From positions 270,001 through 302,000 of the forward strand of contig NC_021219.1 of assembly GCF_000392435.1 (NCBI RefSeq): DNA of 32,000 bases, given 5' to 3'. Of the stretch, positions 14,981 to 26,392 are shown one piece after another. Each line of letters starts with the position of its first letter. The first letter of the stretch is position 1. The notes below the pieces were generated by a model. It made no database searches and was not told where the DNA came from. It saw only the letters and a program-made list of their open reading frames with translations. Position numbers and translations under genes: made by a program. This DNA is from Candidatus Saccharimonas aalborgensis. GTDB lineage: Bacteria; Patescibacteriota; Saccharimonadia; Saccharimonadales; Saccharimonadaceae.

Positions 14981-14999
14981 TGGTAATCCCACCGGGAAT
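14981..14999 (-). pseudogene. orphan 3' fragment of tRNA-Glu (T-loop end, T stem, acceptor strand, CCA)
   Basis: The minus-strand sequence ATTCCCGGTGGGATTACCA matches the 3' end of the intact tRNA-Glu (ATTCCCGGTGGGATCACCA) at 18/19 positions. It lies 145 nt downstream of the intact gene. Confidence 0.7.
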
Positions 15000-15109
15000 A
15001 TCTAAAGATGTAAACCATCCTCACTCGGAAAAATAAGCAAGCTGATTTTTCTCTCATTTCGTCGGTTTATCGAACCCTCCAGGTTCGGTTTCATGACTGA
15101 AACCAACCA

Positions 15110-15144
15110 GAGAAAAAACACCACGCAAGGTGATGTTTTTTCTC
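15110..15144 (-). terminator. 15-bp hairpin immediately after tRNA-Glu CCA (putative terminator/processing stem)
   Basis: Stem arms are GAGAAAAAACACCAC (15110-15124) and GTGATGTTTTTTCTC (15130-15144) with a 5-nt loop. The stem contains one G-U pair and a U6 run. Confidence 0.4.
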
Positions 15145-18175: not shown

Positions 18176-20038
18176 ATGAACAAAGTTATTTCGTTTGTAC
18201 GCCGAGCTCCTACGCGTGTTGTCGCTCTGGCGACACTAGTTGTGGCAAGCCTCATTGTGCCTGCTTCGCTCCACGCGTGGGGTCCGTCTCGTGCAACATT
18301 TACGATGCAAAATCCTGCGACCTATGTGACATTCAACTCTATTACCGACAATCCAAATCTCGGTGATGAGCGTAATTTCACGAGTGTTCGCGAGGTCGGT
18401 TCGACTGGTGACTGGCAAGATGCCGTCACTGTCCAACCTGGCAAAGAGTATGAGGTTCGCGTCTATGTACACAATAATGCCGCAAGCAACCTCGGACTTG
18501 TCGCTAACGATGTAAAAGCAAAGGTAAACGTGCCAACAACGACCGGTAACTCAGTTCGTGTGATGGCATATGTAAACTCAAGTAACGCTACCCCTACAGA
18601 GGTATATGATCAGGCTGATTTCAACAGCACCCAGACATTTAACCTCGCCTACATTGCGGGCAGCGCCAAATATTACAACAACGTGTTTGGTAAGTACGGT
18701 GTCGGTAGCGGCGTCAGCTTGCCTGACAGTCTTGTCACCAGTACTGGTGCAACACTTGGTTACGACAAACTTGATGGACACATCCCTGGCTGTATGCAAT
18801 ACGCCGGCGTTGTTGTCTTTCATGTCAAACCACAGTTTGCCGGTACGCAAAACTTCACGATGAGCAAGCTCGTCAGCAAGCATGGTGCCAATACCTGGGT
18901 TGAGAACTATACTGCTCAGCCTGGCGAAACCGTTGATTATCTGCTCCAGTACCAAAACACTGGTACGCTGCAGCAAGACAATGTCACCTTTCGTGACACG
19001 TTGCCTGCACACATGACCTACGTTGCCGGTAGCACCATCTATGGTAATTCGCAGCACCCAAGTGGTACCCCCGCAAGTGACAATGTCACTGGCGCTGGTA
19101 TCAATGTTGGTTCGTATGCCGCTGGTGCCAACGCATGGGCTATCTTTAGCGCCAAGGTTGATGCCGAAAGTGCGCTTGCCTGCGGCGTAAACTCACTGCA
19201 CAACGTTGCTTCTGTCACCCCTCAGGGTGTTGGTGTGAAGTCTGACGGTGCAGATGTGACGGTAACACGTACTTGCGTGCAGCCAAAACCAATCGAAGTC
19301 TGTCGTTTGGCCGATAAGCAAATCGTCACTATCGACGAAAAAGATTTTGACAGTGCGAAGTACTCGAAGAATCTTGATGATTGTAAATCGCCCGTTACGA
19401 TCAAGGTCTGTGACCTGACAACAAATCAGGTAGTAACAATCAACGAAAAAGACTTCAACTCTACCAAATATTCAAAGAATCTTGATGATTGTGCACCCAT
19501 AAAGGTGTGTGAACTATCAAGCAGTACAGTAATCACCATTGCTGCGCATCAATTTGATAGCACAATGCATTCAAAGAATCTTGATGATTGTGTCAAGATG
19601 CAAGTATGCCGCCTCGATGACAAGCAAATTGTCACGATCAAAAAGAGTGAATTTGATAGCAAGAAGTATTCGGAGAACCTCGACAACTGTCGCGAAATCA
19701 AGGTATGTCGACTTGCCGATAAGCAAGTTGTGACTATCGTGAAGAGCCAGTTTGACAGCAAGAAGTATTCGATGAATCTCGATGATTGTAAAGAAACTCC
19801 AAAACCAGTCATGATCGACGTTTGCCGCTTAAGCGACAAAAAGATCGTATCGATTGATGAGAAAGACTTTACGACCAGCAAGTACTCGAAAACACTTGAT
19901 GACTGCAAGGAAGTACCTCAGCCTCCGAAAGAGCTTCCACACACCGGTGTCGTTGATGGCATCGCTTCAGTAGTTGGCCTTGGCTCACTTGTAGCTGCAG
20001 GTGGATACTACCTAGCAAGCCGACGCGTACTGCGCTAA
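18176..20038 (+). CDS. LPXTG-anchored cell-surface protein with six Cys-bracketed tandem repeats
   Basis: 620 aa; AAGGAG lies 5 nt upstream. It has a signal peptide (VVALATLVVASLIVPASLHAWG) and a DUF11/CARDB-like segment (TAQPGETVDYLLQYQNTGTLQQDNVTFRDTLPAHMTYVAGST). The C-terminal sorting signal is LPHTG, a hydrophobic stretch and RRVLR. Confidence 0.85.
   Translation: MNKVISFVRRAPTRVVALATLVVASLIVPASLHAWGPSRATFTMQNPATYVTFNSITDNPNLGDERNFTSVREVGSTGDWQDAVTVQPGKEYEVRVYVHNNAASNLGLVANDVKAKVNVPTTTGNSVRVMAYVNSSNATPTEVYDQADFNSTQTFNLAYIAGSAKYYNNVFGKYGVGSGVSLPDSLVTSTGATLGYDKLDGHIPGCMQYAGVVVFHVKPQFAGTQNFTMSKLVSKHGANTWVENYTAQPGETVDYLLQYQNTGTLQQDNVTFRDTLPAHMTYVAGSTIYGNSQHPSGTPASDNVTGAGINVGSYAAGANAWAIFSAKVDAESALACGVNSLHNVASVTPQGVGVKSDGADVTVTRTCVQPKPIEVCRLADKQIVTIDEKDFDSAKYSKNLDDCKSPVTIKVCDLTTNQVVTINEKDFNSTKYSKNLDDCAPIKVCELSSSTVITIAAHQFDSTMHSKNLDDCVKMQVCRLDDKQIVTIKKSEFDSKKYSENLDNCREIKVCRLADKQVVTIVKSQFDSKKYSMNLDDCKETPKPVMIDVCRLSDKKIVSIDEKDFTTSKYSKTLDDCKEVPQPPKELPHTGVVDGIASVVGLGSLVAAGGYYLASRRVLR
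19286..19906 (+). repeat. in-frame tandem coding repeats (6 copies, ~31-37 codons each) inside the LPXTG gene
   Basis: The consensus is VC(R/D/E)L.DKQ(I/V)VTI.EKDFDS.KYSKNLDDC, with two Cys exactly 26 residues apart in every copy. First-Cys codons lie at 19301, 19409, 19508, 19607 and onward. Confidence 0.85.
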
Positions 20039-25907: not shown

Positions 25908-25951
25908 CTCTATAGAAAAACCACCCCATAGCGGGTGGATTTTCTATAGAG
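25908..25951. terminator. long inverted repeat / bidirectional terminator
   Basis: The sequence is CTCTATAGAAAAACCACCC-CATAGC-GGGTGGATTTTCTATAGAG. The GC core CCACCC/GGGTGG is flanked by A/T runs on both strands. It sits between the tRNA-Lys locus and the 522-aa gene. Confidence 0.5.
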
Positions 25952-25966
25952 GGCCAGGAGAGACTT
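25949..25966 (-). pseudogene. orphan 3' fragment of tRNA-Lys (T-loop end, T stem, acceptor strand)
   Basis: The minus-strand sequence (C)AAGTCTCTCCTGGCCCTC is identical to the 3' part of the intact tRNA-Lys up to the first C of CCA. It follows repeat copy B directly. Confidence 0.7.
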
Positions 25967-26055
25967 GGCCACGTTCCGCGGCCCCGAAACTTCACCTATG
26001 AAAGCATAGCTTTCAAGGGAAGGTTTCCTTGCGAACTGCCGACTGGCAGTTCTCA
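25967..26055 (-). repeat. tRNA-associated structured repeat, copy B (~89 nt)
   Basis: Minus strand: TGAGAACTGCCAGTCGGCAGTTCGCAAGGAAACCTTCCCTTGAAAGCTATGCTTTCATAGGTGAAGTTTCGGGGCCGCGGAACGTGGCC. It is preceded by GAGAG, which is the tRNA-Lys T-stem 5' strand. Confidence 0.75.
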
Positions 26056-26101
26056 CTCTCTCCACCCCACGGGTGTGGAGAATTCAAGCCGCCCAAACTC
26101 C

Positions 26102-26140
26102 AAGTAAATTCACCGACCACAGGGATCGGTGAATTTACTT
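26102..26140 (-). terminator. 15-bp perfect hairpin immediately after tRNA-Lys CCA (putative terminator/processing stem)
   Basis: AAGTAAATTCACCGA (26102-26116) pairs with TCGGTGAATTTACTT (26126-26140) around a 9-nt loop. There is no clear U-tract. Its placement parallels the hairpin after tRNA-Glu. Confidence 0.35.
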
Positions 26141-26216
26141 GGAGGGCCAGGAGAGACTTGAACTCTCGACACCCTGCTTAAGAGGCAGGTGCTCTAACCA
26201 GCTGAGCTACTGGCCC
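26140..26216 (-). tRNA. tRNA-Lys (anticodon CUU)
   Basis: Minus strand: GGGCCAGTAGCTCAGCTGGTTAGAGCACCTGCCTCTTAAGCAGGGTGTCGAGAGTTCAAGTCTCTCCTGGCCCTCCA. It forms a full cloverleaf with the anticodon loop CTCTTAA and an encoded CCA. TATAAT lies ~12 nt upstream. Confidence 0.9.
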
Positions 26217-26279
26217 ATAATATTAATTATACCGAAATGTGCGATGAACGATATAGCAAGCGGAGCTTGCAAGAGGCAG

Positions 26280-26367
26280 GGTCACATTCTGCGACCCCCG
26301 AACTTCGCGATTGACAGCGTAGCTGTCATCGGAAGGTTCGTTTCCGAACTGCCACTGGCAGTTCTCA
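26280..26367 (-). repeat. tRNA-associated structured repeat, copy C (~88 nt)
   Basis: Minus strand: TGAGAACTGCCAGTGGCAGTTCGGAAACGAACCTTCCGATGACAGCTACGCTGTCAATCGCGAAGTTCGGGGGTCGCAGAATGTGACC. It is followed by CTGCCTCTT, which matches the tRNA-Lys anticodon-arm sequence. Confidence 0.75.
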
Positions 26368-26392
26368 CTCTAACCAGCTGAGCTACTGGCCC
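26368..26392 (-). pseudogene. 5' fragment of tRNA-Lys (acceptor strand + D arm, 25 nt)
   Basis: The minus-strand sequence GGGCCAGTAGCTCAGCTGGTTAGAG is identical to nt 1-25 of the intact tRNA-Lys. It is then interrupted by repeat copy C. Confidence 0.75.

Follow-up and report, generated by a model that had tools for sequence, protein, structure and literature searches.

Rickettsia palindromic elements and their kin are selfish, structured repeats of about 100 nucleotides (nt) that occur in small symbiont genomes, inside genes including RNA genes. Transfer RNA introns are known as bacterial group I introns in anticodon loops and as archaeal bulge-helix-bulge introns at non-canonical positions, while inverted triplications arise at inverted repeats in DUP-TRP/INV-DUP (duplication-triplication/inversion-duplication) rearrangements and in quasipalindrome template switching. 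The palindrome-associated transposable elements (PATEs) and the repetitive extragenic palindromic REP/REPIN sequences are miniatures of the IS200/IS605 group, served by Y1 HUH transposases or REP-associated tyrosine transposases (RAYTs). Integrases leave partial copies of tRNA ends beside intact genes, as attL and attR of islands, prophages and large-serine-recombinase elements or by tandem accretion. Here we describe the tRNA-Lys(CUU) locus of Candidatus Saccharimonas aalborgensis, in a window of 32,000 nt (NC_021219.1, positions 270,001 to 302,000), and an 87-nt structured element that it carries twice. In our preferred reading, to which we assign a probability of about 0.6, a single functional tRNA-Lys(CUU) gene has a separate, non-functional partial copy of itself on either side, and this mobile element has colonised both copies.

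All features of the locus lie on the minus strand and are given in window coordinates. A predicted outer promoter, TTTACA-17 nt-TATACT (26433-26405; 10/12 match in the promoter scan), would drive a 5' partial copy, which opens with tRNA-Lys nt 1-25 (26392-26368), identical to the intact gene at 25/25 positions and over a further 3 nt upstream. Element copy C (26367-26281; 87 nt, TGAGA...GTGAC, 98.4 bits with our covariance model) follows. As read at the junction, it stands in place of nt 26-27 (CA) of the tRNA-Lys copy, which resumes with nt 28-37, CCTGCCTCTT (26280-26271), the 5' strand of the anticodon stem and the loop up to the anticodon; this piece is also found in the Lys modules of two other genomes (G023 and G039). 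The 5' copy has a truncated end in a short hairpin, GCAAGC-TCC-GCTTGC (26270-26256). Next come an inner promoter block, CGCACATTTCGGTATAAT (26243-26226), which consists of CGCACATTTCGG and a TATAAT box (26231-26226) with no -35 match in the promoter scan, and the intact tRNA-Lys(CUU) gene (26216-26140; ARAGORN; 70.5 bits with the Rfam tRNA model). It is the only gene with a CUU anticodon in this genome and presumably the functional copy.

Downstream, an inner terminator hairpin of 21 predicted pairs, which include the CTCCA of the tRNA (26144-26098), forms the centre of a larger palindrome. An inverted arm (26094-26071) is, by gapped alignment, the reverse complement of uninterrupted tRNA nt 73-70 and 62-43. 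It is followed by forward nt 43-54, GGGTGGAGAGAG (26067-26056), a 10/12 match that is better in orthologous modules. Element copy B (26055-25968; 101.7 bits) stands in place of nt 55-56, the TT of the T loop, at a junction shared by 15 T-loop copies. Transfer RNA-Lys nt 57-75, CAAGTCTCTCCTGGCCCTC (25967-25949; 19/19 identity to the intact gene), and an outer intrinsic terminator (about 25948-25908, with a hairpin at 25938-25921 and a T run) complete this 3' module. ARAGORN and Rfam detect the intact gene alone, and the fragments and elements are invisible to both.

A preliminary description of the window, made from the letters alone, had placed correctly every feature that it named, and its coordinates all hold. 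It derived the outer fragments from tRNA-Lys, which the analysis supports, and saw both interrupted by one repeat family, which the covariance model finds at the D-stem/anticodon-stem junction and in the T loop. Its 11/13 match of GGGTGGAGAGAGT to the tRNA was likewise reproduced. A hairpin behind the CCA end is indeed present, but at 15 bp it had been drawn too short, and the stretch at 26094-26071 had been left uninterpreted. The description also drew a parallel with a tRNA-Glu locus, proposing a shared mechanism rather than coincidence. The Glu locus does carry the same repeat at an identical T-loop junction, and a survey of the genome's tRNA genes found the layout at 9 loci. With the layout also at tRNA-Lys of other genera, and the pattern in 45/151 related genomes, it is far beyond chance and speaks for a common mechanism.

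The element is non-coding, about 87 nt long, folds into three hairpins and ends in TGAGA and GTGAC. Twenty of 28 predicted pairs covary in an alignment of 9 copies from this genome, from which the covariance model used for the genome searches was built. When 40 copies are compared across 30 genomes, 97.8% of pair cells hold a pair, and both sides have changed in 23/28 pairs; 0/500 shuffles reach the observed pairing and covariation, and slid controls collapse too. A G.U wobble in P4, the last hairpin, is conserved in 36/38 distinct copies. Pairing, covariation and the conserved wobble show that the fold is selected, and that it is selected on the tRNA-sense strand.

A covariance-model search of the 1,013,781-bp genome returned 12 copies, each beside a tRNA gene: one each at Leu-CAG, Gly-GCC, Glu-UUC, Ser-GGA and Val-UAC, two each at Leu-UAG and Lys-CUU, and three at Gln-CUG, one of which sits 9 kb away. 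In the family, the 45 positive genomes have 1-19 copies each. The same-genus genome G023 has 8; its congener G108 has none, and its tRNA-Lys(CUU) and tRNA-Lys(UUU) genes are single, plain and free of fragments. Outside the family, 1 of about 146 sampled genomes of the phylum was positive; it belongs to a different family of the same order. Among the copies are orphan, truncated and nested ones. No Rfam family corresponds to the element, either at the gathering threshold or at E<=10 over the locus, where only tRNA reaches threshold. In phage, plasmid and viral-contig collections, matches fell on the intact tRNA only, never on the element. Hammerhead, hairpin, hatchet and HDV (hepatitis delta virus)-like ribozymes do not fit, by eye or by Rfam. 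We found no description of the element in the literature we searched, and the family is apparently undescribed so far.

Insertion follows a strict rule. At all 25 junctions that could be mapped stringently on a neighbouring intact tRNA, exactly 2 nt are replaced, at a target of the form RG/NN/C (NN being the lost pair). The two bases 5' of the element are GG in 19 cases and AG in 6, and the base on its 3' side is C in 24/25. The replaced pair is the TT of the T loop in 15 cases and nt 25-26, at the D-stem/anticodon-stem junction, in 9, and otherwise falls at anticodon-loop positions. A few copies end in T, not C, as though they had inserted cleanly between T54 and T55. Element and adjacent cognate tRNA always share a strand, and both strands of one replichore (0-520 kb by GC skew) carry copies, so that orientation tracks the tRNA and not replication.

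These properties set the element apart from its nearest counterparts. Like PATEs and REP/REPIN sequences it is small, non-coding and present in many copies, and it shares with them hairpin conservation on one strand, a single orientation and the lack of target-site duplication. Those elements, however, insert cleanly 3' of a fixed tetra- or pentanucleotide, whereas two target nucleotides are lost here (25/25). Their orientation is tied to the lagging-strand template, unlike the tRNA-sense orientation on both strands of one replichore seen here, and they are not confined, as this element is, to pieces of tRNA genes. Moreover, the Y1 transposase (PF01797) gave 0 matches in the complete genome (99.9% complete), with positive controls, and RAYTs are likewise absent from it. 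TnpB (PF07282) is also absent from the genome. A classical miniature inverted-repeat transposable element of DDE derivation was rejected, as the ends TGAGA and GTGAC are not inverted repeats and target bases are deleted instead of duplicated. An IS110-type element with a bridge RNA was set aside too, since the IS110 transposase (PF01548, DEDD) has 0 matches in the genome.

Rickettsia palindromic elements are alike as structured repeats of about 100 nt spreading in small symbiont genomes. They are tolerated in functional genes, though, whereas the element here lies only in redundant, broken tRNA copies, with a strict 2-nt replacement and no terminal inverted repeats. With tRNA introns it has in common that structured sense-strand inserts occupy tRNA loops, also outside the anticodon loop. 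The element matches nothing in Rfam and could not accommodate a group I core at its size, so a group I intron was discounted. A spliced intron was discounted on the DNA sequence because the host copies lack nt 42-77 or nt 1-42 and lie beside an intact gene; excision would not restore the tRNA, since two nucleotides are missing at the junction. RtcB was not found in the genome.

The element could be a structured domain of a functional RNA that would be expressed from tRNA promoters, with the tRNA arms serving as handles for processing or stability or for docking with the cognate tRNA; in 3' modules the antisense arm might act as a guide-like partner of the T arm. The sense-strand-specific structure with its conserved G.U wobble and loops would agree with this, as would the predicted promoters and terminators on the modules, flanks that remain identical to the cognate tRNA, an orientation that follows the tRNA and not the direction of replication, and an antisense arm that spans the uninterrupted insertion site and whose C-to-T changes keep G.U pairing. 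Yet the distribution is patchy, with the congener and 106/151 family genomes lacking the element, copy number runs from 1 to 19, and some copies are orphaned, truncated or nested. The context also varies between D arm, anticodon loop and T loop, and no partner protein was found. We regard a functional RNA as improbable on this balance.

Comparison of individual copies bears on what moves. In G023, the copies in the 5' modules of Lys-UUU and Lys-CUU are identical at 88/88 positions, while the surrounding module sequences differ. Also in G023, the T-loop copy at Lys-UUU shares 97% identity with a Leu copy from a different genus and 94% with the D-arm copy beside it at the same locus; for copy B of our window, the nearest relative (89%) is a His copy from another genus. 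In G135, one element copy lies within the last hairpin of another, at the site GACGGG/GT/CGCC, where 2 nt are again replaced. Near-identical copies in different tRNAs, positions and genera, together with the nested copy, indicate that the 87-nt unit moves, and not the cassette of repeat, promoter and tRNA that the preliminary description had suggested testing as the mobile unit; judged by such comparisons, the mobile entity is a discrete 87-nt unit. The nested pair belongs to the tRNA-Pro-UGG locus of G135 (L042). At this locus and at tRNA-Pro-GGG of the same genome (L043), pseudo-tRNA-Pro copies are each interrupted three times, in the D loop by a 31-nt hairpin, CCCGCCTGTCTGGNCGACAGGACGGACAGGG, and at 25/26 and 38/39 by one element apiece.

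The sequences around the intact gene had been taken as further evidence of a common cassette. A hairpin behind the CCA end, however, is found at 32/46 tRNA genes, in 12 of which the tRNA end forms part of the stem, and TATAAT-like boxes are common among tRNA genes; being generic, the two features define no cassette. Alignment of the Lys and Glu inner spacers yields only TATAATTA in common (p=0.30). One shared sequence does stand out, an 18-nt block, CGCACATTTC(A)GGTATAAT, which at <=3 edits occurs genome-wide only before the intact Lys-CUU (window 26226-26243), Gln-CUG and Leu-UAG genes (genome 126,945 and 37,763), the Leu-UAG copy having 3 mismatches. A related sequence, CGTACATTTCAC, precedes Lys-CUU in G135.

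This block belongs to the evidence for the history proposed in the preliminary description, in which a single ancestral tRNA-Lys was hit twice by the repeat and then split in the anticodon arm by a cassette of promoter, complete tRNA-Lys and terminator. The inner promoter is unlike the outer one and like the inner promoters of other loci, and the outer fragments jointly amount to nt 1-41 and 43-75 of one gene, enclosed by a promoter and a terminator. Against such a history, the two modules are found separately at many loci. A two-module layout at tRNA-Lys is also present in G023 (Lys-UUU) and G039, but 3'-only modules, with no trace of a 5' module, occur at tRNA-Lys in G027, G069, G026 and G085, and 5'-only modules at Gly-GCC, Ser-GGA and Pro-CGG. 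Promoters are duplicated in young modules. In the young 5' module of Pro-CGG in G023 (L035), the 39 nt upstream of the fragment match those upstream of the intact gene at 38/39 positions, which identifies it as a plain tandem duplication that includes the promoter, and the promoter is duplicated likewise at Pro-GGG in G135 (L043). The inner and outer Lys terminators are homologous (alignment score 27, reached in 0/500 shuffles). At the Lys locus itself, the 3' arm of the GCAAGC hairpin with the adjoining TATA, CTCCGCTTGCTATA, resembles the outer promoter stretch CTCTGTTTGCTATA at 12/14 positions, a likeness that is not significant alone (p=0.16). The single-gene history also leaves the inverted arm unexplained, and a doubly disabled gene could not have been the sole tRNA-Lys(CUU) before its rescue. 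We therefore consider this history very doubtful; the best description of the Lys locus is a single unit of promoter, tRNA and terminator in three partial tandem repeats.

Spare copies also occur without the element, at tRNA-Phe (inverted and direct) and tRNA-Lys(UUU) (a 5' pseudo-copy). At tRNA-Phe (genome 181,470-181,640), an inverted copy of nt 50->28 is accompanied by a direct copy of nt 45-76 with a copy of the terminator, and the T loop has no insert. The pseudo-copy at tRNA-Lys-UUU (genome 351,490-351,610) is degenerate and has 8 extra nt, GTCGAGTA, where the orthologue in G023 carries the element; this could be a deletion remnant. Other insert families occupy spare copies at Met, Ser-UGA and Glu. 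A second T-loop family, of about 100-130 nt and ending in GCGGAAGAGGCTTTAGCCGAT, is found at tRNA-Met (genome 382,350-382,630) and tRNA-Ser-UGA (546,060-546,300), in 3' modules with an inverted arm, and similar ends were seen at L010 and L024. Downstream of tRNA-Glu(UUC), a 3' module at window 14981-15144 (minus strand) has a different T-loop insert of about 66 nt after T59. A near-identical module, terminator included, lies behind tRNA-Glu(CUC) (genome 853,2xx-853,5xx), so isoacceptor loci can share whole 3' modules.

The inverted arm points to how the 3' module may have arisen. Between the inner terminator and forward nt 43-54, it reads GGGC..GGCTTGAATTCTCCACACCC (score 28, p=0.005), and its T-arm part, CTTGAATTCTCCACACCC, matches the expected reverse complement at 16/18 positions. 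Ungapped searching proved too coarse for the antisense arm; gapped alignment, used in its place, finds the arm in 15/20 3' modules (p<=0.025), at Lys, Gln, Glu, His, Val and Leu. It often begins at the reverse complement of CCA, directly behind the terminator. The 3' third of the tRNA is thus present in direct orientation in the gene, then inverted, then direct again with the element, which is the order of an inverted triplication. The palindrome is centred on the terminator loop and turns a second time at the foot of the anticodon stem. Since the T loop from which the arm derives had no interruption, the palindrome does not copy the element-bearing strand, and frequent C-to-T changes in the arm preserve G.U pairing with the forward arm. 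Full-length pseudo-copies lie upstream in a mirror arrangement at Glu and Gln in this genome and at Leu in G135. In the order direct-inverted-direct, the palindrome on a terminator hairpin and the second junction at the base of the anticodon stem, the modules resemble template-switch triplications. This likeness extends to the origin of the spare copies and not to the element, and a random error would not usually recur at so many tRNA loci.

Our preferred reading would accordingly combine two processes. Partial tandem duplication would account for the upstream copy, promoter plus nt 1-41. In the downstream copy, nt 43-75 are joined to a copied terminator and preceded by an inverted copy of the same third of the tRNA; this arrangement may have formed as a direct-inverted-direct triplication by template switching at the terminator and tRNA hairpins. 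The element would then enter each spare copy in the tRNA sense at RG/NN/C, swapping out the two N, in the T loop (54-55), at the D-stem/anticodon-stem junction (25-26) or in the anticodon loop. With every tRNA gene here essential and present only once, disrupting the working copy would kill the cell, which would leave redundant copies as the only places where insertions survive. By splitting a direct repeat, insertion should also slow the collapse of the duplication.

We looked for an enzyme that might mobilise the element. Two reverse transcriptases are encoded in this genome. One, at genome 819,696-820,739, has a PIGNYTSQ motif and YMDD and appears by eye to be of the diversity-generating retroelement type, with no link to the element. 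RVT_1 is present in 45/151 family genomes and coincides with the element in 18, against 13.4 expected; with no meaningful association, and no reverse transcriptase in the genomes that hold 19, 9 and 6 copies, retroelement mobilisation was rejected. Five large serine recombinase genes lie at genome 127.8, 151.4, 302.4, 476.5 and 916.5 kb. Those at 127.8 and 151.4 kb are directly behind the element-bearing tRNA-Gln and tRNA-Gly(-GCC) loci, the former in a 9-kb island between tRNA-Gln and its 3' module. The gene at 302.4 kb lies just past the window end, between tRNA-Lys and tRNA-Arg and about 6 kb from the Lys locus, within which there is no recombinase. A search over 6 kb at the large-serine-recombinase element near tRNA-Gln(UUG) returned no repeat of >=10 nt derived from a tRNA. 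Catalysis of element insertion by serine recombinases was discounted, as the central dinucleotide would be kept on both sides and is lost here.

The recombinases nevertheless bear on the origin of the modules, which could be scars of integration, that is, the ends of small integrative cassettes or islands that recombined with the tRNA gene. Recombination would have been site-specific, through large serine recombinases, or of Campbell type through tRNA homology, and the imported tRNA segment would have had the element in it beforehand. If crossing over took place in whichever intact arm is longer (nt 1-25 or 57-75), the outcome would be a restored gene and an element-bearing copy, with a 5' cassette supplying a new promoter. 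As in integrase-made tRNA duplications, partial copies of tRNA ends lie beside an intact gene, some loci have arrays with cargo genes, and recombinase islands occupy some of the same loci. Direct repetition is exact in the arms adjoining the element, of 25 and 19 nt, while the short inner pieces match imperfectly. Behind tRNA-Lys, 3' modules form arrays that enclose an unknown open reading frame (G147; L024, 1900-2400) or a RelE/RelB-like pair (G135 tRNA-Lys-CUU; L045, 700-1240), an arrangement that resembles a cassette array. With the Gln island, and recombinases at Gln, Gly and, nearby, Arg, 3/5 recombinases are at or near element-bearing tRNA loci, and the inner promoters of Lys, Gln and Leu-UAG have their 18-nt block in common. 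At the Lys locus, however, the nearest recombinase lies some 6 kb off, and the supposed cassette would measure only about 176-193 bp. The extent of the inverted arm, a full third of the tRNA lying directly against the terminator, fits fold-back copying better than an attachment half-site, and serine-recombinase chemistry retains the dinucleotide that is missing here. The element, moreover, also moves alone, even into another copy of itself, and integrase duplications do not account for the 87-nt folded insert, the 5' modules or the inverted arm. We therefore judge an integration-scar origin of the 3' modules to be unlikely, although it is the main rival to partial self-copies colonised by the element.

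Several observations weigh against spare copies made by duplication and then colonised. No filled and empty alleles of one and the same spare copy were caught. Mobility rests on comparison only, with no transposase, recombinase or reverse transcriptase tied to the element. The inner-promoter block shared by Lys, Gln and Leu-UAG favours the split-gene history of the preliminary description, and duplication leaves it unexplained. The exact identity of the 25-nt and 19-nt tRNA flanks requires gene conversion or constraint, and so many spare tRNA pieces in a streamlined 1.0-Mb genome would be odd for neutral junk. Finally, the module arrays with cargo and the Gln recombinase island mean that the 3' modules, at least, may be integration scars and not replication errors.

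A bolder possibility, which we hold only tentatively and think unlikely, is that the element represents a novel type of mobile nucleic acid, which would fold on one strand, be moved by a host or unrecognised factor, target exposed loops of tRNAs or their genes and swap exactly 2 nt. The inverted arm beside every T-loop copy would then belong to the mechanism, pairing with the two sides of the insertion site as a splint or guide, rather than being left over from duplication.

Elsewhere in the window, at 19291-19909, five or six tandem repeats with a period of 99-117 nt are 65-85% identical and probably encode a repeated protein domain.

The main gains at the Lys locus are a corrected anatomy, with two independent modules and an inverted arm, and the rejection of the cassette model. 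If our reading is true, Saccharibacteria carry a lineage-specific family of tiny structured elements whose sole visible niche is redundant pieces of essential single-copy tRNA genes, and whose exact 2-nt replacement without duplication fits no standard scheme of transposition or recombination. The fragments and elements escape tRNA and Rfam scans, which bears on genome annotation. The finding also bears on tRNA genes as hubs for mobile DNA, and on how ultra-small genomes tolerate and generate gene-fragment duplications.

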